Source: a virus. From it: a stretch of DNA of 62,651 bases. A program made the position numbers and the translations under genes. The stretch lies in IMG/VR virus record IMGVR_UViG_3300014202_000736; one strand, written 5' to 3'. Positions 583 to 62,129 of the stretch are shown one piece after another. The notes beneath the pieces are model-generated. The model was not told the origin of the DNA and searched no databases. It saw only the letters and a program-made list of their open reading frames with translations. The number at the start of each line of letters is the position of its first letter. Position 1 is the first letter of the stretch.

Positions 583-1070
583 GTTCGGCCATCTTCAACC
601 GTGGCGGCACGCATCGGCACATCTTGGTTCGAGATATTCAGGACGGTGGGCCCGTGGTCGGGTTCTTCGGCGTCAACGCCAGCACCGCCGACGGCAAACG
701 AGAGGACCAAACCACCCGCAAGTGGAATGGCTTCAGCTATCGCAACGGGTTCAGCAAATACCTCGTCGCCAACCCGTTCGACTACATCGCCACAGACGTT
801 AACGACCTGGCGAAATGTCCGAAGCCATGCAGCAGCGTCAACCTGAGGTACATTCAACAGGTGCTCGACGAAGCTGAGATCTTGATCCCATGCTGGGGCA
901 ACCGAGGCAAGGTACCTCGTCATCTATGGCCAAAGCTTGACGAACTGAAGATGATGATCTTCGCCACGTTGAAGCCGGTTCTGATTTTCGGCCTGACGAA
1001 AACAGGCGACCCGAAGCATCCGTTGATGCTGCCCTATGACACCCCACTTGTCGAATGGAAACACCTATGA
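579..1070 (+). CDS. DUF1643-like protein
   Basis: The motifs GVNASTAD, IPCWGNRG and TGDPKHPLMLPY resemble the NPSxAD...WG...HPL pattern of DUF1643. The start and stop are both coupled to neighbouring genes. Confidence 0.6.
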   Translation: MSSAIFNRGGTHRHILVRDIQDGGPVVGFFGVNASTADGKREDQTTRKWNGFSYRNGFSKYLVANPFDYIATDVNDLAKCPKPCSSVNLRYIQQVLDEAEILIPCWGNRGKVPRHLWPKLDELKMMIFATLKPVLIFGLTKTGDPKHPLMLPYDTPLVEWKHL

Positions 1071-1738
1071 ACTACGAGATCGCGACACAATCAACGGTGG
1101 ACTATGTCGACAAACTCGGCACAGACATCACCGTCGTCAACGCAGCCAGGGTCAGCTTCGACAAACACAGTGACCTGTTCGGCGGCGGCGACGATCGGCT
1201 TCTGAGGTACTTGGCTGAGCACGACCACTGGAGCCCGTTCGCCCACGCTCAAGTGCAGGTGCGCATTACGGCGCCAATCTTCGTCGCAAGGCAGCTGGTC
1301 AAGCACCAGATCGGCCTGGTCTGGAACGAGGTCAGCCGCCGCTACGTTACGGACGAACCGACGTTCTTCTTGCCCAAAGTGTGGAGGGGCAAGCCTCGAG
1401 ACGGGGCTAAACAAGGAAGCTTCGGTGAGGTTAAAATGCATCCGGATCTGATGACCAGGATTACGGACTTGATGTACGACGCCTCAAATCTCTACACAGA
1501 TTTAATGGACTTTGGTGTCTGCGCTGAGCAGGCCAGAATGTTCCTCCTCCAAAATCTCATGACTAGTTGGTACTGGACTGGTTCACTTTATGCGTGCGCC
1601 AGAGTATGCAGGCTCAGACTGGATCCCCACGCTCAAGGTGAGGCCCGAGACGTGGCCATCGCCATGAACAAGATCTGCCTGGAACATTTCCCTCACTCGT
1701 GGGAGAAGCTGGTTCCAGACTGTCATCAATGGACCTGA
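1067..1738 (+). CDS. thyX: FAD-dependent thymidylate synthase ThyX-like
   Basis: AARVSFD, APIFVARQ, NEVSRRY and LRLDPHAQ match the ThyX core. The signature RHR reads KHQ here. The start has an ATGA overlap with the upstream stop. Confidence 0.85.
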   Translation: MNYEIATQSTVDYVDKLGTDITVVNAARVSFDKHSDLFGGGDDRLLRYLAEHDHWSPFAHAQVQVRITAPIFVARQLVKHQIGLVWNEVSRRYVTDEPTFFLPKVWRGKPRDGAKQGSFGEVKMHPDLMTRITDLMYDASNLYTDLMDFGVCAEQARMFLLQNLMTSWYWTGSLYACARVCRLRLDPHAQGEARDVAIAMNKICLEHFPHSWEKLVPDCHQWT

Positions 1739-5588: not shown

Positions 5589-5945
5589 TCAGCCTCGGCC
5601 ACTGGTAGACTCGGTTCGAGCGTTAAGCGCCCGCATGACCTGAAGCTCAACAACGATTTTGTCGGTTTGATCTTTCCATCCTTTCGCTGCTTCGGTGAAC
5701 TTGTCGGACACCGCCCACATCGACTCTCGTTCCTTACTCATTTGGGCCCGTTCGGCGGCGAGAGTAGTCAGCAAACCCTCACGCTCACGACGCATTGCAT
5801 GGCCAGCCCACCACCTTTCAATCCAAGACGCGATGAGCAGAATAATCAACACGTAGAAGAGCAAACGAAAATCTTGCAGCTGCGCCAAGCCGTTCGTCAA
5901 CTCCCGCATCTGGTCCGGGGTAATCTGGGGTGTTTGAATAACCAT
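5589..5945 (-). CDS. Type-II membrane protein with one N-terminal TM helix and a charged helical ectodomain (i-spanin-like)
   Basis: The TM helix is FRLLFYVLIILLIASWI, followed by a charged helical region. Confidence 0.5.
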   Translation of the reverse strand: MVIQTPQITPDQMRELTNGLAQLQDFRLLFYVLIILLIASWIERWWAGHAMRREREGLLTTLAAERAQMSKERESMWAVSDKFTEAAKGWKDQTDKIVVELQVMRALNARTESTSGRG

Positions 5946-5950
5946 GGTCC

Positions 5951-6289
5951 TCAGCCCTCCCCCTTACCCTTTTCAGACGACTCGGTAAACCTCTGCTCAA
6001 GGGCCTCAACCCTGGCTTCCAGGGGATCTAGGCGCCCCTCAATGAGCTCGACGAGGTCAATCCTGTCCATAGCCCGAAGTTGAGCTGCGCGGATCATGCG
6101 TCGAGACTCGTCTTTGTTGATCTTCCAGCGCTTCCCCTTGCCGTCGGCTTTGGGAACTCGCTCACAACCAGGCACCCGAGGTTCGGAGACATTCTCCTCC
6201 AAGATCTTGCAGTCCTCGTGGCCCTCGAGGCTGCGGACAAGCATTACATCGCCGTTCGGGGCTTGGATCAGGGTCATCAGACAGCTCAT
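5951..6289 (-). CDS. Hypothetical protein with a coiled-coil C-terminus
   Basis: The ORF overlaps the upstream stop by 4 nt. Confidence 0.5.
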   Translation of the reverse strand: MSCLMTLIQAPNGDVMLVRSLEGHEDCKILEENVSEPRVPGCERVPKADGKGKRWKINKDESRRMIRAAQLRAMDRIDLVELIEGRLDPLEARVEALEQRFTESSEKGKGEG

Positions 6290-9200
6290 GGTGCGCTCAC
6301 CGTAACAGATCCTGTGATGTTGTGGACGTTGGTCAAGTTGGTACCAGACGAGATCCGGCCAACGATGCGCCAGTCATAGATGCCTCCACCGGTCAGAGGG
6401 CTATCGGTCTCGTTCATCGCATGAGCAGACGGCACCGCCATCTTAAACGGTGGGACATCGGGTTCACCACCACTCGAGTCTTCGATAGAGGAAACGTCTG
6501 AGCGAACCGACCCCTTGTCAGTCCAAATCGGGCTGCCGACCGTACCGGTGTTTCGTTGGGCCTTGAGCTGGTTGGTCCAGGAGTCTCCAATGTTCGCTGT
6601 CGATTTGGTCGGCGTGGCGTAGATCGTGCCAGCAATCAACGCACTGGTCTTGGCGCTCGGCATCGTGCCCGACATAACACCTGTCAAGTCGGTGAAGGTG
6701 TTGCTCGAGAATGGACTGAAACCTGAGCTCTTGGTGATCGGCATCGTGCCGCCTGAGCCACCACCTCCGCCTCCTGAGGTTGCGGCGTTGATGAACTTCT
6801 CAGCCTTGAGCACGAAGCTGTCTCTGGCAAGTCCGCCGTACGAGGCCGTAATGACTATTGTCGAGTAGGCAGTTTCAAGGCTGGCTAAGCTGAAGGTGCC
6901 CGTGCTGGTTCCAACCATCGGTTTAGAGCCTGAAGAAACCGTGAACAAGTTTGCTCCGCCCTCTTGGACTACGTAAGCCCAAGATACGCCTCCAGTTACA
7001 GTGCCGAGAAGGGTCTTCAACTTGTAGAGCAAATCTTTCGGAAGCTCGCCGGCGAGTGCGTTGCCAGCTGAGTCATATTGAACAGTCTGTTGGGGCGTTC
7101 CCTCGACCCACATCGTCTGGTCAGCCGCAGCTTGGGTGCGACCGATCCGGAACCCGGTCACGTAGGCTGAGAAGCCGGACTTGTCAGCAAACGAGATGAT
7201 GCACTCCACGCTGGCCGTGTTCGCCGGCGTGATGACAATGTGGTCTCGAAGCAGCCAACCAGAGGTGGCACTAGCAAAAGCTTCGGTGTAGCTCGGGCTG
7301 GTACTTAGCAAAGCGCCAGCAGAACTGTAGAACTTGGCCTGAATGGTCAAGTCCGGAGTAGCGGTGCCGCTCGTCTTGACTAAGTTGATGAACGCCCCGA
7401 CCGAGATCAATTGGTTCGGAGCGGCGGGGAACCTAGCGCCGTTGGGCTTGGCCAAGATCGTGCCGGTGGCGGCGGTGCAGACCACGCCAGTCGTGTCAGG
7501 TGCACCGGCTGGGAGGCTCGAGCTGGCGGAAAAGCTGGTCAGCGTGTAATCTGGGAACCCGGCCTTCTTGAAGTTCGGATCGACGGCGTAGTTGTCGCCT
7601 ACTGTGGCGAATGGATCTGAGTCGATGTTGGCGTAGCCAGCGGCAATGTTGGTAACCGTGCCGGCCTGGTAGGCCCAGATCTTCGGGTAGAAAAGCTTGA
7701 ACGCCTCCTCAGCCACCGAGGTCAGGATGGCGGTGCCGATGATGGGCACTATCGCCTTGCCCGTGTACTTGAGCTCGAAGTTCGTGTCGACCGGGATCGC
7801 GCCGACCGAGCCCGAGGCCACTGACGCGCCGTCCTTGTAAAGAACCCACGCGCCGGTCGAAACCGTGACCTCGAACAGCCAAGCTTGGCTAGCGAGTGAC
7901 GTACTCGTGAGGCTGAGATCGTCCAGACCCACGACAGTTTTGCCAGTTGCGCTTGTCAAGCATCGGACATACGCTGAACCTGAGAGCGGAAGACTTCCAA
8001 CGACAGCGTAGTTGTAGTTGCTTCCGACGTTAGTTCTCTTGAAGCTGTTGCCATAGATGTCAGTCAGCAGGGTTGACCCGATCGGCGAGAGCTTGACTCC
8101 AAACCCGATGTCAGTGACGGCGATCCAGGATCCCCCGTCGTAGCGACGAAGAACAGTGGTACCCGTGCTTGTGTCGGGCCAAAGGTCACCAGCGATGGCG
8201 CCAGCCGGAGGCGTCGTGCTCGGGGGCCAGATCGTGTTGATCGTGGCGTCAAAAGCGTCGAGCTGAGCCTGCAGGTCCAGAAGGATGGACGGAATGTTCG
8301 AGGCATCGTGCACGAAGTGGCAAGCTTCGGCTCCGATCCGAAGTGACCAAGTCGGCGACGCCACTGGCAGGTTGTTTGTGTTGATGACGTCTGGCAGCCT
8401 GTCTCCCTTGGCGCTGAGCGTCATCGACGAAGCCCCGAACCTCATGCGGCCGAAGGTCATCACATCGTTGACGTCCCAGAACCAGTAAGCACCGATCGAT
8501 CGAAGCACAGCTGACACGCACTCCAAGACCTTGACTTGGCTCTCGTAGTAGATGTCAAGTGGATAGCCCGCCGCTGTGTTCAAAGCTGACATGCTTGAGT
8601 TAGAAAGCGTGACGCCGGAGATCGTCATGGTGACGACCCGCTTGATGATGTCAGCCGCCTTCTTCAAGCAGGTTCCGCCATTCACCCCGTTCGTGTCACC
8701 CTTGCAGTGGACCGTGACCGGAAACGACGGCTGCGAGCCCAGCTTGATGAGACCGAGATTGTTGTTTCGAACCCACTCGCCTTGGACTACAACGGCGTCT
8801 CGGATCTCGGCATAGGCTCCGGTGTACGTGGCAGCGGGTGCTCCGCCCGTCCCGATCTCGAGTCCGCCCTCGAAGCAACCGTAGATGCTTTCGACTGGGC
8901 CATACCCATGCACTTGATAGATCTGGCGAACCTCGTCAATCAGCACGGGGCGACAGTACTTAGCATCGCCGAAACACATCGGCTTCAGCACGCCTTCAAG
9001 GTCCGGCGTGCCTTCGATGTCTCCCGAACCTGCGTAACCATAGTAGAGAACGTCTCGGTCCTCAAGCAGCTTGTCGTTCGTCCGAAGACCAACGGTGATC
9101 GACTCGTTCGACTTCCTGGTGGCACCATCACCAACCGCCGAGAAAATCAGCGGAAAGGTGCCGGCCTCCACGTCGCCAGCGTAAACCTTGATCCTGGCTC

Positions 9201-48120: not shown

Positions 48121-50097
48121 GTGCGCCAACCTAAGCCTGTCACGATCGACTTCGAGACCAAAGGCATCGAGCTCCGGCCAGACTACCCGCCGGAGCCTGT
48201 TGGTGTCTCGATCAAGAAGCCCGGCCAGAGACCCCGATACTACGGTTGGGGGCATCTGGCCGGAGGCAACAACTCATCCAAAGACGAGGCTGTCAAAGCC
48301 CTCCGCAAGGTGTGGGACCATCCCGACGGCTTGCTTTTCCACCATGCCAAGTTCGACCTCGACGTGGCCGAGTGTCGGCTAGGCCTTCCGATGCCGCCAC
48401 CGGACCGGGTTCACGACACCTTGTTTCTCCTGTACCTGGAGGATCCTCGTCTCCACAGCTTTAGCCTGAAGCCATGCTCTGAGACCTTTCTCGACATGCC
48501 GCCTGAGGAGCAGGATCTTCTTAAGGCGTGGATCCTCGACAAGAAGAACAAGGCCTGGATCGAGAGCCACCTCGGCCTCGACGCTGAAGGCAAGCAGATC
48601 ACTGTCAAACCGTCCAATTGGGGCGCCTACATCTGGTTCGCACCAGGCGAGGTGGTTGGACCATACGCGAACGGCGACGTGGTTCGGACTGAGGGCTTGT
48701 TCAACTTGCTGTGGCAGAGCATCCAGAAACGAGGCATGCTTGACGCCTACATGCGTGAGCGTCGTCTCATGCCCCACCTGCTTCGGTCGGAGCGTGAAGG
48801 CACCAGGGTCAACAAGGCTAGGCTTCGCAAGGACATCAACGCCTACGAAGATCTTCTTGTCCGCATCGACGACCGCATCAGAAAGAAGTGCAAGCGCGAC
48901 ATCAACGTCGACTCGCCTGCGGAGTTGGCCAACGCTCTCGTGGAGGCTGGTCTAGCTGACGATGGGCTGATGGGCTACACCAAGACCGGCAAGCTTAGCA
49001 CGAACAAGGCGGCCATCAAGGAGGGCGTGACAGACAAGGAGATTAGAGGCCTGCTACTTTATCGTGGGCCTCTGACCACATGCCTCGGCACTTTCATGAG
49101 GCCGTGGCTCCACACCGCTGAACGTTCCGATGGTCTTCTGTTCACGAACTGGAACCAGACCAAGAGCGGAGACGGCAAGAACAAGGTCGGCACCTCGACT
49201 GGTCGACTGTCCTCCACGCCCAACTTTCAGAATGTGCCGAAGGAATTCCCGCCTCTTGACAAGCTGATGCAGATCACGCCGGCGCAGTTGAAGACCTTGT
49301 GTGATCGACTGAGGATCCCGAAGCTCGAGCTTCTGCCACTGTGCCGAAGCTACATCGTGCCGTACGACAAGGGCCATGTGCTGATTGACCGAGACTACTC
49401 ACAGCAGGAGCTCAGGATCCTGGGCCACTACGAGGACGACGTTCTTTTTCAGGCCTATCTCAAGGACACGTGGCTCGACATGCACGAGTTCGCTCGTCAG
49501 CTCATCAAGAAGATCACCGGTACCCTGTACGATCGGAAGCCGGTCAAGAACACGAACTTTGGCATCATCTACGGGCAAGGGGCTCCGAGCCTGGCAGTCC
49601 GCAACGAAATTCCGGTGCACGAGTCTCGCCAGATCATCGACGGCATCCTCGCAGCTTTCCCTGGTGTGCAGGACCTGATTGACGACATGAAGGAGCGTGC
49701 TCGCAACGACGAGCCCATCCGAACATGGGGAGGCCGAGAGTACTTTTGCGAGCCGCCGATGTTCGTCGAGAAGTTTCAGCGTGTCATGAGCTTCGACTAC
49801 AAGCTATTGAACCTGCTCATCCAGGGGTCGGCAGCGGATTGCACGAAGGAAGCCATCATCCGGTGGTGCGAGGCCAAGCCGAACGACGACAAGTTCTTGA
49901 TGACCGTGCACGACGAAACCTTAGGCTCCACGCCGAAGGGTCGGATGCACGAGGCGATGACACTGATGCGTGAGAGCATGGAGAGCGTAGAGTTTGACAT
50001 TCCGATCTTGACCGAGGGCACGTGGTCGAACACCGACTGGGCCCACATGAAGGACTACGACAAAGAAGGGAAGATGATCGGTGGCCGTGCGAGATAG
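48121..50097 (+). CDS. Family-A DNA polymerase with a 3'-5' exonuclease domain
   Basis: ExoI is TIDFET. Motif A is LIDRDYSQQELRIL, motif B is RKPVKNTNFGIIYGQG and motif C is LMTVHDET. Confidence 0.9.
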   Translation: MRQPKPVTIDFETKGIELRPDYPPEPVGVSIKKPGQRPRYYGWGHLAGGNNSSKDEAVKALRKVWDHPDGLLFHHAKFDLDVAECRLGLPMPPPDRVHDTLFLLYLEDPRLHSFSLKPCSETFLDMPPEEQDLLKAWILDKKNKAWIESHLGLDAEGKQITVKPSNWGAYIWFAPGEVVGPYANGDVVRTEGLFNLLWQSIQKRGMLDAYMRERRLMPHLLRSEREGTRVNKARLRKDINAYEDLLVRIDDRIRKKCKRDINVDSPAELANALVEAGLADDGLMGYTKTGKLSTNKAAIKEGVTDKEIRGLLLYRGPLTTCLGTFMRPWLHTAERSDGLLFTNWNQTKSGDGKNKVGTSTGRLSSTPNFQNVPKEFPPLDKLMQITPAQLKTLCDRLRIPKLELLPLCRSYIVPYDKGHVLIDRDYSQQELRILGHYEDDVLFQAYLKDTWLDMHEFARQLIKKITGTLYDRKPVKNTNFGIIYGQGAPSLAVRNEIPVHESRQIIDGILAAFPGVQDLIDDMKERARNDEPIRTWGGREYFCEPPMFVEKFQRVMSFDYKLLNLLIQGSAADCTKEAIIRWCEAKPNDDKFLMTVHDETLGSTPKGRMHEAMTLMRESMESVEFDIPILTEGTWSNTDWAHMKDYDKEGKMIGGRAR

Positions 50098-51208: not shown

Positions 51209-51429
51209 TGCCTCAGGTCGGCGAGGTCTGGAAATACAACGGCAACAACCGAGACCGGTTCGGCGTCGAGTACAGGATCTTGGAGTTGCTGCCTGCGATG
51301 AAAGAACCCAACTGGGACTGGAAGCCCGGGGTGAAGTACGCACCCCTAGATCCAGTCGCCACAGCGCCGGAGAACTTCGTTCGGTTCACCCATGACTTCG
51401 TAAATTGCTTCAAATATGTCAGGGGATAG
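51196..51429 (+). CDS. Hypothetical protein (77 aa)
   Basis: ORF trimmed to MSVLMPQ. Confidence 0.45.
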   Translation: MSVLMPQVGEVWKYNGNNRDRFGVEYRILELLPAMKEPNWDWKPGVKYAPLDPVATAPENFVRFTHDFVNCFKYVRG

Positions 51430-51853
51430 GGTCCGCATCCGCGGGACGTTAGAGAAAGTAGACGAGTCATGGGTTTGCGAGCAGGCTTTAGAGAGATACG
51501 GCGTGGAGAATATCAAGGTTGGCCACTCAGGCTGGCCCGACAGGTTATATCTAATACCAGGCGGCAGGCCTTTGTGGATCGAACACAAACGAGCTGGCGA
51601 GAAGGCGATGAGGCGTCAGCAATTCAGGATCCAACGACTCAAGGAAATGGGCTACGACGCGGAGCTGGTCGATGACCGAGAAGAAGCGCTACGTCAAATC
51701 GGCCGAGCCGTGGAAGCCGCACAAGTTCCAAGGAAAGGCCGTTCAACGCCTCATGGACAACGCGACGCAGATGCTCCTCGCCAGTCCAGGCGCGGGCAAA
51801 ACGTCGGTTTCCCTGGACGCCTTCCGTCGCCTCCAAGACCGAGGCGTCGCTAA
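51416..51853 (+). CDS. VRR-NUC domain nuclease
   Basis: The motif is GWPDRLYLIPGGRPLWIEHKRAGEKAMRRQQFRIQRLKEMGY. The C-terminal 60 aa form an Arg/Pro-rich read-through that overlaps the SNF2 gene. Confidence 0.7.
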   Translation: MSGDRVRIRGTLEKVDESWVCEQALERYGVENIKVGHSGWPDRLYLIPGGRPLWIEHKRAGEKAMRRQQFRIQRLKEMGYDAELVDDREEALRQIGRAVEAAQVPRKGRSTPHGQRDADAPRQSRRGQNVGFPGRLPSPPRPRRR

Positions 51854-53271: not shown

Positions 53272-54180
53272 ATGACAACCGAAATTCGTCCGTGCCAGCA
53301 GATTGGCGTCAAGCGCATTTGCTTCCTGGTGGACCTCGACAAGACCAGGGCCAAGATCCTGGACAACTTCGTCTGGGCCGTCGCCACCAAAGAGATCCCG
53401 ATCAAGGTCTGGAAGAAGGAGTGGAAGACGCTCCAGCTGCCTGAGGACAAGGTCGCGAAGATCCTCGACGGCCTAGCTGCCTACGCCATCTACGCTGGCA
53501 TGACGCCTGACGCAGGCGAGTACCTGCCGAACATGGTGCCGATGTCACAGCCGGCCCGGACCGTGGCCCTCAGCAAGGGCAAGGAGCTGCTCGAGCGCTA
53601 CAAGACCCAGGCCGAAATCGAAGAGGCGGCTGAAAAAGCCGGCAAGCCTCTGACCGGCGCCGCTCTGATGAGCGTCGTCAAGCGCGAGCTAGCCAAGGTC
53701 AGCGCCGAGGATGGGCTTCGGGGCCTGGACACACCTCCGGAGCAGCTCTCCGAACCAGGCACCGGCAACACGGCGACTGAGGACGGAGAGGTCACGCAGG
53801 ACAAGCCAGCTGGCCGAGTCGCTCGCCGAACCGAGACCAAGAAGGCGAAGCAGATTAAGACGCTCGCCGCCGAGGTCACGAAGGATCTGACCGAAGCTGA
53901 GCAGGCCGGCGAAAACCCGGCGAAGATCATGAAGAGCCGACCTCCAGTCGAACGGTCGAAGGGTTTTGACCCGGCCAAGCTCAAAGGCTCCGACGGCGAA
54001 TATAAGTCCGTCTCGGCCATGTTCAAGGGCCTCGTCCTCGAGAACGTCGGTAAGAAAAAGCCGTTGACCGACGACCAGATCTTCGAGAAGGTCAAGGCCA
54101 AGTTTGGCATCGACGAGTCAAAGCGCGGCTACGTCCAATGGAACCGCAATTGGCTGAAGAAGGAAGGAGTCATCGCATGA
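53272..54180 (+). CDS. Hypothetical protein (302 aa) with a charged central linker
   Basis: ORF preceded by gctgaaggagaatgacca. Confidence 0.5.
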   Translation: MTTEIRPCQQIGVKRICFLVDLDKTRAKILDNFVWAVATKEIPIKVWKKEWKTLQLPEDKVAKILDGLAAYAIYAGMTPDAGEYLPNMVPMSQPARTVALSKGKELLERYKTQAEIEEAAEKAGKPLTGAALMSVVKRELAKVSAEDGLRGLDTPPEQLSEPGTGNTATEDGEVTQDKPAGRVARRTETKKAKQIKTLAAEVTKDLTEAEQAGENPAKIMKSRPPVERSKGFDPAKLKGSDGEYKSVSAMFKGLVLENVGKKKPLTDDQIFEKVKAKFGIDESKRGYVQWNRNWLKKEGVIA

Positions 54181-54923
54181 GCAAGAGCATCATCGACCAA
54201 CAGGAGGTCGTTGTCGAGTCGGCCGATGGCAAGACCATCACTTATCGTTTCCAGCTCGAACGAGCAGACGACGTATTTACGATGTTGGTCTCAGCCGCCG
54301 ACTCCACTGGCAACTCTATTCGCCTTCGTGATGGTGACCACTACGTCGGCATGGTCCTGATGGCTCAGGCCAACATGATCGAGCAAGGGCTCCATATCAA
54401 GGAGCACGGGCCCGACGTGATGGAGGACATCGTCAAGTTCCATCAGAAGTTCAGCCTCGAATATCACGGCAAGCCGAGGATGCTCGAACCCGAGCTCTTC
54501 GACTTCCGCAGCCGCTTCCTCGAGGAGGAGCTGACCGAGTGGCGAGAGGAACAGGTCGGCCTGATCGAGGCGTTGACCTCGGACGACGGCAAGCCTGACC
54601 ATCGGCGCGTGGCCCTCGGTCTGCATCAACAGCTCGACGCGCTGGTCGACCTCGTCTACGTCGCCGTCGGCACGGCCTATCTCCAGTTCGGCCGCAAGAT
54701 TTTCAACGAGGCGTGGCGCAGGGTCCAGGCTGCCAACATGAGCAAGATCCGGGCCGAGAACGCCGGCCTGTCGAAGCGTGGCTCAGCGTTCGACGTTGTC
54801 AAGCCCGAAGGCTGGCAGGCGCCGGACCATCACGACCTCGTGAAGGACCACGCCCACATTCCGTTCCGGCAAAGCGGAGAGCTGAACCCAGGCCACGAAA
54901 AAGACACCCAGGTGATCGCATGA
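54177..54923 (+). CDS. MazG-like all-alpha NTP pyrophosphohydrolase with an extra N-terminal domain of about 85 aa
   Basis: The motifs are FHQKF...RFLEEELTEW...DALVDLVYVAVGTAY...EAWRRVQAANMSK. The start has an ATGA overlap. Confidence 0.7.
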   Translation: MSKSIIDQQEVVVESADGKTITYRFQLERADDVFTMLVSAADSTGNSIRLRDGDHYVGMVLMAQANMIEQGLHIKEHGPDVMEDIVKFHQKFSLEYHGKPRMLEPELFDFRSRFLEEELTEWREEQVGLIEALTSDDGKPDHRRVALGLHQQLDALVDLVYVAVGTAYLQFGRKIFNEAWRRVQAANMSKIRAENAGLSKRGSAFDVVKPEGWQAPDHHDLVKDHAHIPFRQSGELNPGHEKDTQVIA

Positions 54924-55094: not shown

Positions 55095-56114
55095 ATGGCC
55101 AACCGACAAGTGGTCCTCAGCCCGTTCTACCCGATCTCGGACAAGCTCGACACCAGCCATCGAGCCGGCTGGGCCAGGTACTGGGCCAATGAGCTTAAGG
55201 CCGAGATCTTCACCACCGGTTCCATGGGCCAGATCGCCACCCTCAAAAAGGGCGACGAGATCCTGATGTACCACGGTATGGAGTTCAAAGGCCAGCTGAA
55301 CCTCCAGTCTGGCCTCACGGATGAGATCCTGGGCCGCGTCAAGCTCGTGCTGGATGCGAAGAAGCGGGGAGTGGTGTTCGGATCACTCGACGTGCCAGGG
55401 CCTCGTTACGGGCGGCTTCTGGCGGACCGTGGCATGGATCCTGACTCGGCTGAGGCGCTGGACAAGGTCGGCACGAACACGCCGTTCCTCGGGGCGCCGA
55501 ACAAGGGCAAGCTGGTGGTGATCGGTGACAGCCACGCCCTGAGCCTCTATCGGCCAGGTTCCACCATCAGCCGATCCGACGGCCTGACCCTCCACGGCGC
55601 ATTGAAGACTGGCCTCAGCCAGCACATGCAGAACTTCGTCTTTGAAGCCGACGCTGGCTTGGCCAAGGCCGACGTGCTGACGTTCTACTTCGGCAACATT
55701 GACATTCGCCACCATCTCGGACGTCAACCAGATCCGAAGGCGTCGATCAAAGAGCTGGTTGACGAGTACGGTCAACAGCTCGCCATGGTTGTCAAGGACT
55801 TCCGACCGAAGGTGCTCGAGGTAGTGATGCCGCTGCCAATCGAGGACGAGAGTCGCCCCATTCCGAAGTCTGGCTGGTACAAGGGCGCACCGTTCTTTGG
55901 CCCGTGGAGCGTGCGTCACCAGATGCGGCTCGAGCTGCGTGATCGGCTGAGACGGATGTGCAAAAAGTACGGGTTCGCGTCGTACGAGCATCCGAGACAC
56001 TTCGTCGGCCGAGATGGCAAGCTGCCGTTCGAGGTGATGGAGAAGCCTCGGTCGGTGCACGTCAGGCCGGCGGAGTATCGGCTGGTGCAGGAAGGCCAGG
56101 CGTGGAATGGCTGA
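55095..56114 (+). CDS. Two-domain protein of unknown function whose C-terminal half has SGNH-hydrolase-like blocks
   Basis: VVIGDSHA resembles GDS block I and FYFGNIDIRHH resembles GxND block III. The evidence is weak. Confidence 0.45.
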   Translation: MANRQVVLSPFYPISDKLDTSHRAGWARYWANELKAEIFTTGSMGQIATLKKGDEILMYHGMEFKGQLNLQSGLTDEILGRVKLVLDAKKRGVVFGSLDVPGPRYGRLLADRGMDPDSAEALDKVGTNTPFLGAPNKGKLVVIGDSHALSLYRPGSTISRSDGLTLHGALKTGLSQHMQNFVFEADAGLAKADVLTFYFGNIDIRHHLGRQPDPKASIKELVDEYGQQLAMVVKDFRPKVLEVVMPLPIEDESRPIPKSGWYKGAPFFGPWSVRHQMRLELRDRLRRMCKKYGFASYEHPRHFVGRDGKLPFEVMEKPRSVHVRPAEYRLVQEGQAWNG

Positions 56115-56340: not shown

Positions 56341-56627
56341 CGGGTGTGAACCGCAATCGCTATGGACGTGCCATTAGCCAACCCATCGGTCCCTGGCCCG
56401 GGTTCGAAGCCGAGGACGAAACTTGGGAGACGGTAGATCCCTCCCATCCTGAGTTACTTCCTCCTCCAGGTCAGTTGGTCGAAGTATTTTGGGTCGTTGC
56501 CAATCTTGAGTACAACACTCTTCGGATCTCGTACGGGAAGTGCTCCATGGTCGGAGACCGCAAGTGGCTGAACGAAGATGGCCAACAGGTGGTCTTCAAC
56601 CCTAAGTTTTGGAGGCCGATCCCATGA
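56337..56627 (+). CDS. Hypothetical protein (96 aa)
   Basis: GTG start overlapping the upstream stop. Confidence 0.45.
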   Translation: MTGVNRNRYGRAISQPIGPWPGFEAEDETWETVDPSHPELLPPPGQLVEVFWVVANLEYNTLRISYGKCSMVGDRKWLNEDGQQVVFNPKFWRPIP

Positions 56628-57811
56628 CGAGAACAGTGAAGCGAGGGTCGATCAAGCTCGAGGAGAACGTGACACCTCCGTCGGCTCTGGAACTCAAGAT
56701 CGGAAAGATCACGCTCGCCGTCAACGAGCCAATCGTTGCAGACCCCAAAGCCTTCGAAAAGAAGGTCAAGGCTGGCTTCAGAGCTTTTGCCATCGCCCAC
56801 GATCGTGGGCTCAGGCCAACGCCCTACTTCTTTGAGGCGATCGACTACGTGCGCAAAGCCAAGATCTTACAGGCTGCAAGCCTGGAGAACGGAGGTCTCG
56901 GCGCCGAGAAGGTGCCGAAGGTCGGAGACCCGTTGATGGAGACCATCCCGATCTACAACACAGTCCAACGTCGCTACGCCGGCTTCTCCAACGTGCTCGA
57001 GCAACTGTGGTACGGCAGCCGAGCTCCGAAGGTGCAAGCCAACAAGGCTCGAGGGTTCTATGACCCGAAACTGAAAGCGTGGAAAGGCATCTCTAAGATC
57101 TTACCTCGCGAGTGGCTCTATCTGTGCCTTGCCCATCGCATCACGGGGTCTGGAGCGTCGTTCGAGTGGGACCACGGCTGGCGCAATAATCGGATCTACG
57201 AGATTGCCTACTTAGACAAGATGAGTGAGATGTCCCATCGGTTGTCTACGTACGATGGGCCGATCTTCACTAGCATCGGCAACCAGATCCCACCATTTCC
57301 AAAGTGCGGAGGCAGAGAATATCTCGACTATCTTGCACCTCAGCTCGTGCTCAAGACATATAAGTGGCTGTCGTGGCGCGCCACCCAAAGCGGGCCTGCG
57401 CCCATTAAGCAAGTCGTAGATAAGGTGCTCGAGTTTCACACTGAGCTCGGCTGCAAGCAGTTCAAGTTCGTGCTGACGGCCTGGGTCATGGACATCGCCG
57501 AGTACATGCCTCACCTGGTCGACCCCAACTCCGACTGCTACCACGGCAAGAACGCCATCGAAGCGGTGGACATCTGCTTCTACAACACGACGATGACGCG
57601 CCAGCAGAAGCTCGATGCCGCCACCAGGCTCTTTGCCGACGTCAGCGGTACTCAGCCCATGGACGTAGAAGACGCCAGCCCTGGCTGTGACCTGGTCCGA
57701 TGGATTGAGAATTACGTGCCGAAGAAGGGGTTCGATCACGTGCACGAGAACGAGATTTTCAACGGCTCGAGCTTGACGTGGTCTCATGGACGTCAACCGC
57801 CGCCATTTTAG
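56624..57811 (+). CDS. Large orphan protein (395 aa), candidate DNA/nucleotide base-modifying enzyme (aGPT-Pplase-like is hypothesis only)
   Basis: Motif-like islands are LAHRITGSGASFEWDHGWRNN, GNQIPPFPKCGG and FVLTAWVMDIAEY. The assignment rests on genomic context only. Confidence 0.5.
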   Translation: MTRTVKRGSIKLEENVTPPSALELKIGKITLAVNEPIVADPKAFEKKVKAGFRAFAIAHDRGLRPTPYFFEAIDYVRKAKILQAASLENGGLGAEKVPKVGDPLMETIPIYNTVQRRYAGFSNVLEQLWYGSRAPKVQANKARGFYDPKLKAWKGISKILPREWLYLCLAHRITGSGASFEWDHGWRNNRIYEIAYLDKMSEMSHRLSTYDGPIFTSIGNQIPPFPKCGGREYLDYLAPQLVLKTYKWLSWRATQSGPAPIKQVVDKVLEFHTELGCKQFKFVLTAWVMDIAEYMPHLVDPNSDCYHGKNAIEAVDICFYNTTMTRQQKLDAATRLFADVSGTQPMDVEDASPGCDLVRWIENYVPKKGFDHVHENEIFNGSSLTWSHGRQPPPF

Positions 57812-58322: not shown

Positions 58323-58558
58323 AAGATCCATTCGACCGCTTCACCGACTGGCTTCGTCGACAGACGGACAAGACGGTTGACGACCCACCTGTCCACGGCT
58401 GGTTGATCCAATACTTCTTCGGTTTGTTCGGCCTCTTCATCATGGTGACGGCGGAGCCTGAAGATCCTAGGTTCATGATTGGCATGATGTGCTTCGGCAC
58501 GTACTCCATCATCCGAACCATACGTGTGATCGAGAAGGAACGTCGAGATGGCGCATAA
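58319..58558 (+). CDS. Membrane protein with two TM helices (79 aa)
   Basis: The TM helices are WLIQYFFGLFGLFIMV and FMIGMMCFGTYSII. Confidence 0.5.
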   Translation: MKDPFDRFTDWLRRQTDKTVDDPPVHGWLIQYFFGLFGLFIMVTAEPEDPRFMIGMMCFGTYSIIRTIRVIEKERRDGA

Positions 58559-59513
58559 CAACCACACCACCGACTCGACCATCCGAGAGTTCGTCAAGGA
58601 CGGTGTGACGCCTGAGTCATTGGTCCGCATGGCTGAAGGCTGGGTCGACCCGTTCCCAGAGCCGGTGGTCGAAAAGGTTCGAACGACGAACACCGTGGCT
58701 GACCAGAACCGGAACGGAGTGATTGGAAAAACTGTGTTCGTCGTGCGTGACGACCTGCCTGAAATGGGCAGCAAGGGCAGGTTCGGCAGCCTGCTGGTGC
58801 AGCGGATCAAGGATGACACGATCGTCTACGTCGCACCACGCGTAGGCTGGGCCGCCATCAGTCTGGCTAAGCTGTGCAACATGTATGACAAGCGCCTGAT
58901 CCTCTTCGCGCCGGCGTGCAAGGAGCCGAGTGACCACCAACGAGTGGCCATGGAGCTCGGAGCTGACATGAGGTTCTACCGGGTGGCGGCGATGCCGAAC
59001 CTGCAGCGTGAGGCTGAGGCGTTCGCCAAAAAGCACGGCTACTTCTTTGCTCCCCTCGGGCTTCGTCACCCGCTGGTCACGGCGGCAATCGTAGCTACAG
59101 TCAAGAAGATCATGGCCAAGCGTCGAGTGCCGTTGACTGGCAAGGAACGGCGTCAGATGTGGTGTGCCATGTCCACCGGTGTGCTGAGCCGTGGGCTTCA
59201 GATTGCTTTGCCGAACTGGGACCATCACGGCGTCGCCGTGGCTCGCAACATTCACTCCGGTGAGCGTGGCCATGCCGAGATCCACAGTCACCCGTACGCA
59301 TTCACTCAGAATGAGATGCCGGCGCTTCGGCCTCCGTTCCCATCGGCGTCGAACTATGACGCCAAGGTGTGGCGCTACATCTGCGATGAAGGCGAAGACG
59401 GATGCTGGTTCTGGAACGTCGCGGGCGAGATCCTGCCGACGAAGCCGTTGCCACCGAGGTGGTCCAAGTCCGACGTGCCATACAACGATCGCTCAGCGTT
59501 CAGGAGGAAGTAG
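58548..59513 (+). CDS. PLP-dependent fold-type II enzyme (ACC-deaminase / D-cysteine-desulfhydrase-like)
   Basis: VFVVRDDLPEMGSKGRFGSLL resembles KRDDLxxxxGGNKxRKL, with a candidate PLP lysine. Size is 321 aa. Confidence 0.6.
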   Translation: MAHNNHTTDSTIREFVKDGVTPESLVRMAEGWVDPFPEPVVEKVRTTNTVADQNRNGVIGKTVFVVRDDLPEMGSKGRFGSLLVQRIKDDTIVYVAPRVGWAAISLAKLCNMYDKRLILFAPACKEPSDHQRVAMELGADMRFYRVAAMPNLQREAEAFAKKHGYFFAPLGLRHPLVTAAIVATVKKIMAKRRVPLTGKERRQMWCAMSTGVLSRGLQIALPNWDHHGVAVARNIHSGERGHAEIHSHPYAFTQNEMPALRPPFPSASNYDAKVWRYICDEGEDGCWFWNVAGEILPTKPLPPRWSKSDVPYNDRSAFRRK

Positions 59514-60445
59514 TGCTGCAACCATTGACCATCTTTGAAGGCCCTGATTGCTCAGGCAAATCGACCGCGGCAAATGAATTCTGGCAGCTCGCTCGAACGA
59601 GCCAGAAGCGGATCCACCACGGGCCGTATCCGGGCATCAAGAAGATGCTGCCTCGGCTGTACGTGGAGACAATGCTGCCGATGCTCGATGGTGGCGCTGG
59701 TCAAGTCTGGGATCGGGCCTGGTACTCTGAGCCGATTTACGGCGCCTCGTTCCGGAACGGCGAAGACCGGGTCGGCTCAGTTGCTTCACGCCACCTGGAA
59801 CGCTTCGCTCTTCGTCACGGTGCCGTCGTTGTGCTCTGTCTGCCGCCGTGGGACACAGTCCGTGAAAGTTGGCTCAAGCGCAAGGGCGAGGAGTACCTCG
59901 ACAAGGTCGAGCAGCTCGAGAAGGTCTACAACGACTACTCCGACCTTCGTCGGTGGTGCGGTCTGCCCGTGGTGCTGTACGACTACGAACGTCACTCGAT
60001 TGACCAGATGTCTGAGGCCGTCGAACGGGCCAGGCTCGGCATCTTCAAGGAACCGAAGATCCACGCCGGCGGCAACCCGAACGCCAAAGTCGTCTTGGTC
60101 GGCGACAGGTGCAGCGACCTCAAGGACGAAGACTGCAACTGGCGCCTGCCGTTTGCCAGCTTCTCTGGCGGCGGCTCGAGTTCGTGGTTGACCAGAAAGT
60201 TGATGGATCTCAAAGTTCGAGAAGACCAGCTTCTCTGGGTCAACGCTAGCGATCGCCTCGAGTGGCTCGACGAGCGCCACAATGAGCTTGTCATCGCACT
60301 CGGTCAAGAAGCGGCAAGGAAGCTTGTCCACCACGACATTCCTCATGTGGAGGTAGAGCACCCGCAATACTTCAAGCGTTTTCGTGAGGGCGACGAAGCC
60401 GCCGTCTACGAACTTTTTGAAATCTTGGAAGGATTGAACCCATGA
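59513..60445 (+). CDS. Fusion protein with an N-terminal thymidylate-kinase-like P-loop dNMP kinase and a C-terminal UDG-superfamily (family-4-like) domain
   Basis: Kinase: FEGPDCSGKST and VWDRAWYSEPIYG. UDG-like: KVVLVGDRCSDLKDEDCNWRLPFASFSGGGSSSWLTRKL and a terminal HPQYFKR. The GTG start has an aggagga SD. Confidence 0.7.
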   Translation: MLQPLTIFEGPDCSGKSTAANEFWQLARTSQKRIHHGPYPGIKKMLPRLYVETMLPMLDGGAGQVWDRAWYSEPIYGASFRNGEDRVGSVASRHLERFALRHGAVVVLCLPPWDTVRESWLKRKGEEYLDKVEQLEKVYNDYSDLRRWCGLPVVLYDYERHSIDQMSEAVERARLGIFKEPKIHAGGNPNAKVVLVGDRCSDLKDEDCNWRLPFASFSGGGSSSWLTRKLMDLKVREDQLLWVNASDRLEWLDERHNELVIALGQEAARKLVHHDIPHVEVEHPQYFKRFREGDEAAVYELFEILEGLNP

Positions 60446-61260
60446 GCGTAGCTCTAGACCTGAACATCGAATGGAAAAAGCTTCTCGGCGACGTTGTTCG
60501 TCGTGGCCAGCTCGTTCAGCCTCGAGGGTTGAACACGAAGGAGCTGCCGCAGATGACGATGATGTTCAGCATGCTCTATCCTGTCATCACACACGCTGAG
60601 CGGAAGCTCGGCTATCGGTTCATGGCGGCCGAAGCGTGGTGGATCCTGTCAGGCCGGAATGACGTGGCGTCCATCGCGCCCTACTCGAAAGCCATCAGCG
60701 AATTCAGCGACGACGGCCAGTACTTCTTCGGCAGCTACGGCGTGCCGTTCGTGGACCAACTCGCCTATGTGGTCAACACTCTTCGAAACGACATCGACAC
60801 GCGCCAGGCCACGATGACGTTCTGGCGTCAGTGCCCGCCGAAGACGAAAGACGTGCCGTGCACCATTGCGATCGACTTCAAGATCCGCAAGGGCAGGTTG
60901 AACGCCCACGTCTTCATGCGCTCAAGCGACGTCTGGCTTGGCGTGCCGTACGACTCGTTCAACTTCACGATGATGGCCTGCCGCGTGCTCGAGCTATACA
61001 ACGACGGCCTGGCCGACGATGACCGGGTTGGCCTGGGCACCTGCTTCTTGACGGCGGCGAGCAGCCACCTGTACGAGAAGAATTGGCTCGACGCTGAGCA
61101 GGTGCTGAAGTCGGCCGTGCCGTCACCAGCCACGGTGCCCGTTCCTAAAGCTCTCTACGGCAAAAATTCAGACACGCCGGTCGACCTGATCCCGTTCCTC
61201 GACACGCTGAAGGACGAGACAAGCGACGAGTCGCCGTATCGTTGGTGGGTGCCGAGATGA
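60442..61260 (+). CDS. Thymidylate-synthase-family pyrimidine nucleotide C5-(hydroxy)methylase, dCMP-hydroxymethylase-like
   Basis: The motifs are EAWWILSG, FGSYG, DIDTRQATMTFW, catalytic PC(140)T and MRSSDVWLGVPYD(171)SFNF. Asp sits where ThyA has Asn177. Confidence 0.8.
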   Translation: MSVALDLNIEWKKLLGDVVRRGQLVQPRGLNTKELPQMTMMFSMLYPVITHAERKLGYRFMAAEAWWILSGRNDVASIAPYSKAISEFSDDGQYFFGSYGVPFVDQLAYVVNTLRNDIDTRQATMTFWRQCPPKTKDVPCTIAIDFKIRKGRLNAHVFMRSSDVWLGVPYDSFNFTMMACRVLELYNDGLADDDRVGLGTCFLTAASSHLYEKNWLDAEQVLKSAVPSPATVPVPKALYGKNSDTPVDLIPFLDTLKDETSDESPYRWWVPR

Positions 61261-61406: not shown

Positions 61407-61554
61407 GATCCTGCTCACGCTCACCATTTTCATGGCCATCGTGTCTGGCGTCACGCTCGCGTTGGCTGAGGATCCGATCACCGCTTCGATGCCGCTCTTC
61501 CTGACTGGCTGGTTCGGCGTCTTTACCTTTTGGGTCGGAAGGAGCCGCAAATGA
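61399..61554 (+). CDS. Small membrane protein (51 aa, two TM helices)
   Basis: Read manually as MVKILLTLTIFMAIVSGVTLALA...LFLTGWFGVFTFWV. The stop overlaps the next ATG. Confidence 0.4.
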   Translation: MVKILLTLTIFMAIVSGVTLALAEDPITASMPLFLTGWFGVFTFWVGRSRK

Positions 61555-62129
61555 GCTTTCGAAGCTTGGCGAAGCAACGCACTCTTAGGATCAGTCGTCA
61601 CGAGTGGGCGATCAGCCTGGCGGTCATGACCTCCAAGCGTGCCACGTGTGTGCGCCGCCAAGTCGGCTGCATCCTGGTTGACAAGGACTGGTACGTCCTT
61701 GCTACCGGGTTCAACGGTGTGCCATCAGGCTTACCCCACTGCAACGACCCAGGGAACATCAGCAAGCTTCGAGCCGTGCCATCTGACGACGGGAACGAGT
61801 TGACCAACTTCTCGTTTCCCAACGCCTGTCCAGGAGCCTTCGCCGAGAGCGGCACGAACCTGGACGGATGCCACGCCATCCACGCTGAGCAGAATGCTCT
61901 GCTTCGGTGCCGGGACCCTCGTGAGATCTTCGCATGCTATGCCACGGCCAGCCCGTGCATGACGTGCGTCAAGCTGCTGATGAACACCGGCTGCAGGCAG
62001 ATCTACTTCCTCGAACCTTATGCCCATGACGAGCCAGCCCGAGAGCTGTGGGAGTCGCTTCGGGGCAAAGGTGCGTGGATCCACCTGACGCCTGAGCTCG
62101 AGGCCCAGCTGAGGGAGCACGGTCAATGA
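61551..62129 (+). CDS. dCMP deaminase
   Basis: The zinc motifs are CHAIHAEQNAL and SPCMTCVKLL. The start follows a ggaaggag SD. Confidence 0.85.
   Translation: MSFRSLAKQRTLRISRHEWAISLAVMTSKRATCVRRQVGCILVDKDWYVLATGFNGVPSGLPHCNDPGNISKLRAVPSDDGNELTNFSFPNACPGAFAESGTNLDGCHAIHAEQNALLRCRDPREIFACYATASPCMTCVKLLMNTGCRQIYFLEPYAHDEPARELWESLRGKGAWIHLTPELEAQLREHGQ

Follow-up and report, generated by a model that had tools for sequence, protein, structure and literature searches.

Why should a phage gene join a deoxynucleoside monophosphate (dNMP) kinase to a uracil-DNA glycosylase (UDG) fold, and on what would the joined protein act? The question is raised by a gene near the end of a 62,651-nucleotide stretch of phage DNA (IMG/VR record IMGVR_UViG_3300014202_000736), the whole of which is called the window here. 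The fusion is real and occurs commonly among uncultured phages. It is the marker of a conserved module of nucleotide metabolism, and in AXL3-like and related siphophages the product of this module is very likely DNA with 5-hydroxymethyl-dC. With about even confidence, we read the protein as a kinase for 5-hydroxymethyl-dCMP joined to a glycosylase, probably active, for bases of the uracil type, working in a modified-cytosine pathway that acts before replication.

Two known folds in one protein

The fusion gene starts with GTG at 59513 and stops at 60443-60445. The gene, its ribosome-binding site and the segments of its product on which the assignments turn are as follows.

59513-60445, plus strand: kinase-UDG fusion gene, 310 amino acids (aa), read in the sequence and identical to a public protein (P0001)
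59502-59507, plus strand: Shine-Dalgarno sequence AGGAGG, 5 nt before the GTG start, read in the sequence
59513-60028, plus strand: N-terminal dNMP-kinase domain, residues 1-172, with a predicted thymidylate kinase (TMPK)/YorR-like fold (Foldseek, YorR profile, phrog_761)
59540-59566, plus strand: Walker A motif or P-loop, G10-PDCSGKS-T18; G10, D12, G15 and K16 invariant in 56 homologues
59711-59743, plus strand: segment D67-R68-x-W70-x-S72-E73-x-x-Y76-G77; D67, R68, W70, S72, E73 and Y76 invariant in 56 homologues
60038-60442, plus strand: C-terminal domain, residues 176-310, with a predicted minimal UDG fold (Foldseek against PDB, BFVD, weak Pfam UDG matches)
60101-60133, plus strand: UDG motif A region, G197-D198-RCSDLKDE-D207; family consensus LVGExFAExKDxD, aligned with UdgX 'IGEQPGDKED'
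60149-60160, plus strand: P213-F214-A-S216, in which F214 is the counterpart of the base-stacking Phe; aligned with UdgX 'LPFvG'
60236-60244, plus strand: W242-V-N244 at the end of strand 2 of the model; aligned with UdgX 'vtNa'
60359-60382, plus strand: UDG motif B, H283-P284-Q-Y-F-K-R289-F290, from residue conservation in 56 homologues

The GTG overlaps by 1 nt the TAG of an upstream gene for an enzyme dependent on pyridoxal phosphate (PLP), and an ATGA at the end of the fusion gene forms a 4-nt overlap with the start of a ThyA-like gene. As judged from these overlaps, the fusion gene appears to be translationally coupled to both neighbors. A 62.7-kb JGI metagenomic contig carries an identical 310-aa protein called from the same start, which indicates that the window comprises essentially an entire phage genome. 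A longer in-frame open reading frame (ORF) from the ATG at 59402 (347 aa; additional stretch 59402-59512) would share 112 nt with the PLP gene; this start is disfavored, as GTG 59513 is supported by the alignment of homologues, by the Shine-Dalgarno sequence and by the public gene call.

At 90% identity, at least 164 clusters conserve the fusion at full length, and a profile of the C-terminal domain found 1634 representatives at 50% identity, nearly all of them fused among the matches listed. The matches of both domains lie far beyond chance. Databases name the fusion or its family thymidylate kinase in phrog_761, in RefSeq (AXL3 gp29) and at JGI, and 'hypothetical' elsewhere. No description of a dNMP kinase-UDG fusion was found in the literature searched, in keeping with an earlier impression, formed from the sequence alone, that the fusion had not been characterized. 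Both domains are of known kinds, and phage polymerase-UDG fusions are already known.

A full-length AlphaFold2 (AF2) model built from the 56 homologues, which are 39 to 76% identical and over which residue conservation was counted throughout, had a pLDDT of 94.8 and a pTM of 0.93. Foldseek matched this model in the PDB to TMPKs, YorR and deoxynucleoside kinases, with E values of 1e-7 to 1e-5 and target-normalized TM-scores (TMt) of 0.53 to 0.62 for the TMPKs. The family profile matched SPbeta YorR over the whole N-terminal domain (E = 1.6e-10), the profile comparison aligned the D67-G77 segment with YorR 'DRfvySnlvY', and residues 7-295, nearly the full length, matched phrog_761 'thymidylate kinase' in PHROGs (E = 5.7e-12). 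In a Pfam scan of the fusion (E ≤ 10), the TMPK model PF02223 was unmatched and only the P-loop families AAA_33 and KTI12 were found; an NCBIfam scan of the protein gave no match. We take the DRxxxSxxxY segment to correspond to the TMPK motif 'DR(Y/H)xxSxxAYQ', which presumably binds the 5'-phosphate of the acceptor nucleotide. In the model, residues 1 to about 172 adopt a thymidylate-kinase/YorR-type dNMP kinase fold.

With the TMPK and YorR kinases of known structure (PDB 2axp and 3kb2, YorR; 2wwg and 2v54, TMPKs), the domain has in common the P-loop fold, the EGxDxxGK(S/T) and DRxxxSxxxY motifs and a length of ~170 aa, and in phages these kinases, too, adjoin nucleotide-modifying ThyA homologues. 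It differs from them in its low identity (~20%), the lack of a Pfam TMPK match, the additional C-terminal UDG domain and a predicted substrate that is a 5-substituted dCMP rather than dTMP.

Because the whole-model Foldseek search was dominated by the kinase domain, a separate AF2 model was made of residues 170-310 (pLDDT 86). All 34 of its PDB matches at E ≤ 1e-3 were family-4 UDGs (1ui0 from Thermus, 1l9g and 1vk2 from Thermotoga) or UdgX, with E values of 1.2e-5 to 6e-4 and query-normalized TM-scores (TMq) of 0.53 to 0.64, and its matches in BFVD were phage UDGs and PolA-UDG fusions. The Pfam UDG model (PF03167) was matched at E < 1 by 11 of 39 homologous C-terminal domains, the best at 1.6e-5. 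A sequence profile of the domain matched family-4 UDGs in the PDB below threshold (E ~1.3) and was used for register, not as evidence; the register of motif B, the Phe and the Asn was confirmed against the UdgX alignment. Modeling thus places residues ~176-310 in a minimal fold of the family-4 UDG type.

Selection acts on the active site of the UDG domain, and the residues on which a UDG would depend are strongly conserved. G197 is invariant, and the next position, the acid of motif A, is Glu in 29, Asp in 25 and Gln in 2 homologues, that is, acidic in 54/56. F214, H283 and P284 are found in 56/56, and N244, R289 and F290 are each found in 55/56; in the alignment, N244 occupies the position of the uracil-recognizing Asn ('ytN') of family-4 UDG. 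From its sequence, the domain appears to retain the full base-recognition and catalytic set (acid, Phe, Asn, His-Pro and Lys-Arg-Phe).

Family-4 UDGs and UdgX (1ui0, 1l9g, 6ajo) have the same alpha/beta fold, the same entry 'G-x-G-N-x-x-A-x-hhhVG(E/D)', the Phe of PF, the Asn of strand 2 and 'HPxYxxR'. The window domain is smaller than these, is fused to a kinase, has a four-residue insertion after PF and lacks the Cys helix, the Fe-S ligands, the Pro-Gly of motif A and KRRIH. The UdgX KRRIH insertion with its cross-linking His is not in the sequence, where strands 2 and 3 are only 13 residues apart (S246-E258). Just before the 'GxGN' entry to the domain, linker position 178 is Phe in the window (60044-60046) and His in 52 of the 56 homologues.

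The original prediction had described this architecture by eye, and most of that description stands. The gene limits are right, since GTG, AGGAGG and stop were read in the sequence and agree with the public call; FEGPDCSGKST and DR-x-W-YS, cited there for a resemblance of the N-terminal half to thymidylate kinase that the TMPK/YorR matches bear out, are residues 8-18 and D67-R68-A-W70-Y-S72. The divergent UDG fold proposed for the C-terminal half was recovered by structure prediction and Foldseek, which gave only family-4 UDG and UdgX among the significant matches, and the survey of the architecture found it kept at full length, as counted above. Motif A does read GDRCS (G197-S201) rather than GE(G/A)PG, and motif B reads HPQY (H283-Y286). 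The family-4 pattern held in its residues and failed in its literal spacings, 'LVG-x5-ED' and 'PF-x-G-x-G-x-L', as the window has LVG-x8-ED and PFASFSGGGSSSWL; the latter contains the four-residue insertion relative to family-4 UDG.

A predicted cytosine-modification pathway

The substrate of the kinase was approached through the genes that accompany the fusion in the window.

54138-54923, plus strand: MazG/PRA-PH-type NTP pyrophosphohydrolase, candidate dCTPase/dUTPase (Pfam PRA-PH, phrog_671)
58548-59513, plus strand: PLP-dependent enzyme of the M6 gp52 family (phrog_7093, E = 6e-35)
60442-61260, plus strand: ThyA homologue, predicted dCMP 5-hydroxymethylase (N177D, L143D, D169; MilA match)
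61530-62129, plus strand: dCMP deaminase (Pfam dCMP_cyt_deam_1, E = 9.5e-16; phrog_174)
1055-1738, plus strand: ThyX, FAD-dependent thymidylate synthase (TIGR02170, 107.5 bits against a cut-off of 87.9)
48121-50097: PolA (Pfam scan: DNA_pol_A family only)

Nine loci were compared (the window, AXL3, MW202621, L003, L004, L005, L008, L009 and L010). The order MazG, kinase-UDG, ThyA homologue was constant in 9/9, and a dCMP deaminase followed in all 8 loci not ended by the contig; the L009 contig breaks off inside the gene that follows the fusion. The MazG-type gene is the immediate upstream neighbor of the fusion in 7 other loci. ThyX directly follows the dCMP deaminase in L003, and it does so in the window on a circular reading of the genome; with ThyX at its start, the window thus looks like a circularly permuted, near-complete genome.

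The best PDB match of the ThyA homologue was the CMP hydroxymethylase MilA (E = 2.8e-15), and its scores were far under the NCBIfam thymidylate synthase cut-offs. The ThyA homologues of the window, L003, L004, L005 and AXL3 all have Asp at the positions of E. coli N177 and L143 and keep D169. E. coli ThyA and T4 gp42 served as references in this alignment, and PDB alignments independently led to the same conclusion. N177D makes the enzyme prefer dCMP, L143D/E accompanies hydroxymethylation, and D169N is the mark of 5-hydroxy-dCMP synthases (PMC13326640). The ThyA homologue is therefore predicted to be a dCMP hydroxymethylase; a thymidylate synthase or dUMP hydroxymethylase was rejected for the Asp at the N177 position, and a 5-hydroxy-dCMP synthase because D169 is retained. 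As ThyX is encoded, ordinary dTMP is made, and an Asp-type ThyA homologue together with ThyX indicates that the modified base derives from cytosine and is not 5-hydroxymethyluracil (5hmU). On this sequence evidence the phage probably makes DNA containing 5-hydroxymethylcytosine (5hmC). Of 37 restriction enzymes, 35 fail to cut AXL3 DNA, and only those recognizing AATT and TTAA succeed; every tested enzyme with G or C in its site failed (PMC7504290), a pattern that fits modification of C.

A stand-alone form of the kinase points the same way. Pelagiphage HTVC200P gp013 is a 157-aa homologue of the kinase domain (phrog_761, E = 3.8e-18) with the same motifs, and it lies directly upstream of an Asp-type ThyA homologue in which N177D and L143D are also present. 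'Nucleotide kinases' of the YorR/TMPK type likewise adjoin dCMP-modifying ThyA homologues in DLP3, RB69 and RL38J1 (PMC13326640). Because the stand-alone HTVC200P kinase adjoins the same kind of ThyA homologue, the kinase belongs with that enzyme. The UDG domain is an addition acquired in the siphophage lineage.

We infer the substrate of the kinase, the activity and specificity of the glycosylase and the reason for their fusion as follows. The N-terminal domain would phosphorylate the predicted product of the ThyA homologue, 5-hydroxymethyl-dCMP, to the diphosphate; a host NDP kinase would make the triphosphate, and the phage PolA would incorporate the modified nucleotide. The MazG-type enzyme would remove dCTP, while dCMP deaminase and ThyX would lead to dTMP by way of dUMP. 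The route through dCTPase, deaminase and ThyX would flood the cell with dUMP, and deamination of 5hmC would give 5hmU. Uracil-type bases would then be a by-product hazard of dUMP-rich metabolism and would leave unprotected sites in phage DNA, and the C-terminal domain would be an active glycosylase for such bases, for U and possibly for 5hmU from deaminated 5hmC. The fusion would in this way tie the supply of precursors to base surveillance associated with replication, as may be the case in UDG-PolA fusions of the SPO1 and SP15 type. This comes close to a second suggestion of the original prediction, that nucleotide phosphorylation is coupled to surveillance of unmodified bases: the coupling is kept in the likeliest reading, and the bases proposed are of the uracil type rather than simply unmodified. 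If the glycosylase is active, the fusion is a new way to couple precursor synthesis with base surveillance, and its C-terminal domain is a very small Fe-S-free UDG and a possible reagent.

Known systems give partial precedents. Active UDG domains are joined to PolA in phages with modified pyrimidines, and phages of the SPO1, SP-10 and SP-15 types have a polymerase-fused UDG with intact motifs and a replaced pyrimidine (bioRxiv 10.1101/2025.03.26.645540). In such fusions (SPO1, SP-10, SP-15, YerA41, phiLo), as in the window, a family-4-type UDG that keeps motifs A and B is joined to an enzyme of precursor supply or replication; they differ in that the partner in the window is a dNMP kinase rather than a polymerase and the UDG is C-terminal rather than N-terminal. 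T4 gp56, gp42, gp1 and cd (dCTPase, dCMP hydroxymethylase, hm-dCMP kinase and dCMP deaminase) follow the same logic as that proposed here, although T4 gp1 is not fused to a glycosylase and was not among the top structural matches of the fusion in Foldseek.

Several observations weigh against the reading of the protein as a 5-hydroxymethyl-dCMP kinase with an active glycosylase. On the glycosylase side, motif A is without the Pro-Gly of GE(A/G)PG (GDRCS in the window, GExFA in the family consensus), the domain of ~130 aa is about one-third shorter than the ~190 to 205 aa of family-4 UDGs, and the Fe-S cysteine ligands are absent from it, the N-terminal Cys helix being replaced by the kinase. 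The only widely kept Cys among the positions tabulated is at position 222 (Cys in 41 and Ser in 14 of the 56), which is Ser in the window, and C200 is particular to the window sequence. With Pro-Gly missing, the size small and no Fe-S cluster, the domain could have lost its activity or its DNA binding, or either could be changed. The window copy also scores only 17.6 bits (domain) and 14.3 bits (full length) against PF03167, whose gathering cut-off is 24.3. On the kinase side, the near-invariant R48 falls, in an alignment by eye, where TMPKs have the Arg that binds thymine O4, which suits a uracil-type better than a cytosine-type nucleotide and makes the kinase substrate uncertain. Finally, when all Walker A ORFs of the window were listed, the fusion was the only P-loop kinase candidate, and the presence of an M6 gp52-type PLP enzyme without a recognizable DNA kinase or aGPT-Pplase leaves an activation step unassigned.

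Competing readings

Among the alternatives, the one that best survives takes the UDG module to be non-catalytic, a tether to DNA or the replisome or a nucleotide-binding regulatory domain that localizes or controls the dNMP kinase, for which the dead UDG domain of N4-like polymerases and the poxvirus processivity subunit D4 are precedents. The heavy trimming of the domain to ~130 aa, its want of Fe-S cysteines, the loss of Pro-Gly from motif A, the Gln in place of the acid in 2 of 56 homologues and the score of the window copy under the Pfam cut-off would all suit such a role. UdgX crystals bind dUMP (PDB 6ajp), so the fold can hold a mononucleotide, and replication enzymes with a fused, inactive UDG domain have been described (bioRxiv 10.1101/2025.03.26.645540). 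However, the inactive N4-like domains are reported to have lost the residues in question (bioRxiv 10.1101/2025.03.26.645540), whereas the acid, Phe, Asn, His-Pro and Arg-Phe are kept here in 54 to 56 of 56 divergent homologues, which would not be expected of a purely structural tether. We consider this explanation unlikely, while giving it real weight.

The original prediction had put a different function forward, that the fusion supplies a missing step like that of the 5-hydroxymethyluracil DNA kinase (5-HMUDK). In this scheme, here adapted to cytosine, a 5-hydroxymethyl-pyrimidine is turned out of duplex DNA by the UDG fold so that its CH2OH reaches the fused P-loop kinase, which would be a functional analogue of 5-HMUDK; amino-acid transfer and PLP-dependent decarboxylation then follow, with the 5-phosphomethyl base as the leaving-group intermediate. 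M6 gp54 is an experimentally proven 5-hmdU DNA kinase (PMC8989533); it matches phrog_800 at E = 2e-39, and PF18748 is found in every one of its homologues. The fusion protein matched neither PF18748 nor phrog_800 in the Pfam and PHROGs scans, and PF18748 was found in 0/120 fusion homologues among the matches listed. Pairwise BLAST of the fusion against M6 gp54 (BLASTP E = 2.3) and gp55 showed no similarity. A profile of M6-type 5-HMUDKs searched against all six-frame ORFs of the window (hmmsearch --max) gave a best E value of 1.8 and nothing to the fusion ORF; this profile is narrow (≥54% identity to M6) and would miss very divergent DNA kinases, so every Walker A ORF of the window was also listed. 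The other two were an SNF2 helicase and a terminase-like protein.

A 5-HMUDK, too, is a P-loop kinase of small size whose gene lies close to one for a ThyA homologue and, as in the window clade, close to one for a PLP enzyme of phrog_7093. The families differ, however: only Walker A aligns, and 5-HMUDKs have neither the DR motif nor a UDG domain. The known 5-HMUDK pathway starts from 5hmU and employs aGPT-Pplase and an Asn-type ThyA homologue, whereas 5hmC and an Asp-type ThyA homologue are predicted for the window.

The evidence on a DNA base kinase is accordingly divided. The fusion is the sole P-loop kinase candidate in a window that has no M6-type 5-HMUDK; the adjacent PLP enzyme belongs to phrog_7093, of which the archetype, the decarboxylase M6 gp52, acts on amino-acid adducts in DNA (PMC8989533). 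M6 gp52 itself matches phrog_7093 at E = 2e-159, and the window enzyme matches M6 gp52 in pairwise BLAST at E = 8e-4. The pTM of the full model indicates that both domains pack as one unit, and motif A is remodeled where a 5-substituent would point. Against it stand the absence of PF18748 and phrog_800 matches, an invariant DRxxxSxxxY that corresponds to the nucleotide-binding motif of TMPKs and is found in the stand-alone HTVC200P homologue as well, equal conservation of the fusion in AXL3-type genomes without the PLP gene set, and the absence of aGPT-Pplase among the proteins scanned; moreover, the ThyA product would then be left with no dNMP kinase. Family non-membership, the TMPK motif, the constant nucleotide block and the cytosine pathway thus mostly contradict the proposed step. 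It keeps some probability because the genome has no other P-loop kinase candidate and does have a PLP enzyme of the M6 gp52 family, and we hold it to be quite improbable. Just as doubtful is a version confined to the window clade, in which the fusion doubles, or has been recruited, as a DNA 5hmC kinase, an amino acid being then added through a neighboring 400-aa family and decarboxylated by the PLP enzyme. If true, this would be the cytosine counterpart of thymidine hypermodification, built from unrelated parts.

A glycosylase for unmodified cytosine, which would destroy host DNA or cull phage DNA containing dCMP in the manner of the cytosine-specific endonucleases of T4, seems less probable again. 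The pathway is predicted to modify cytosine, the MazG enzyme fits removal of dCTP, and the gate region of motif A is remodeled. The fold can be retuned, as single substitutions turn human UNG into a cytosine-DNA glycosylase, but the engineered cytosine glycosylase needs Asp at the position where N244 remains Asn in 55/56 homologues. Least probable, by a little, is an ordinary thymidylate kinase that makes dTDP and bears a fortuitous extension, as the names in phrog_761, RefSeq and JGI imply and as the TMPKs at the top of the Foldseek list and the making of dTMP by ThyX in the same genome would allow, since the Pfam TMPK model is unmatched (generic P-loop matches only) and NCBIfam gives nothing, the C-terminal part is a conserved UDG fold rather than an extension, the gene invariably has as its partner an Asp-type ThyA homologue, which is no thymidylate synthase, and hosts already possess Tmk.

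Genes upstream of the fusion

Upstream of the fusion, the loci carry different gene sets beside the constant block. The window, L003 and L008 have the PLP enzyme and the same three unannotated proteins, which lie in the window as follows.

56609-57811: 400-aa family
55095-56114: 339-aa GDSL-like protein (phrog_13881)
53272-54180: 302-aa protein

The 400-aa family comprises 419 clusters and had no match in Pfam, PHROGs, NCBIfam or PDB; searched against the PDB, the 302-aa and 339-aa proteins gave chance-level matches only. The 400-aa protein was considered as an aGPT-Pplase or AADT and rejected, as no database match was found and hhalign gave a probability of 0.7% against M6 gp51. A likeness seen by eye between its FKFVLTAWVMDIAEY and 'GFKIADMMD' is unsupported. 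No family match to aGPT-Pplase was found among the neighbor proteins scanned. The unannotated neighbors may supply the missing steps by other chemistry. A PLP gene set in a genome with predicted 5hmC and no recognizable 5-HMUDK or aGPT-Pplase is a candidate for a route of cytosine hypermodification that has yet to be described; this gene set is the more promising lead and may matter more than the fusion itself.

In other loci the upstream block contains methyltransferases: an S-adenosylmethionine (SAM)-dependent enzyme in AXL3, L004, L005 and L010 and a C5 DNA methylase in L009 and L010.

AXL3 (L001) 5602-6426, L004 6742-7545, L005 7803-8573 and L010 6094-6864: SAM-dependent methyltransferase (Methyltransf_23)
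L009 6296-7336 and L010 7438-8481: C5 cytosine DNA methylase (PF00145)

In AXL3, L004 and L005 the Methyltransf_23 gene is the immediate upstream neighbor of MazG, and in L010 it lies two genes farther upstream; its product may further modify hydroxymethyl-cytosine or its nucleotide. The PF00145 methylase gene is directly upstream of MazG in L010 and one gene further upstream in L009. Such an enzyme is odd beside the module if C5 is already substituted, which suggests partial replacement or a different product in the L009 and L010 phages.

Two further observations concern annotation and gene content. M6 gp54 (L002, 11686-12249) is annotated 'terminase small subunit' in RefSeq, and phrog_800 bears the same name; this label is an annotation error and will hide 5-HMUDKs in phage annotations. 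L003 encodes, at 1011-1598 between an exonuclease and a helicase, a protein with an Nmad5 domain (nucleotide-modification-associated domain 5), and the counterpart place in the window is taken by a 145-aa endonuclease-like ORF (51416-51853).

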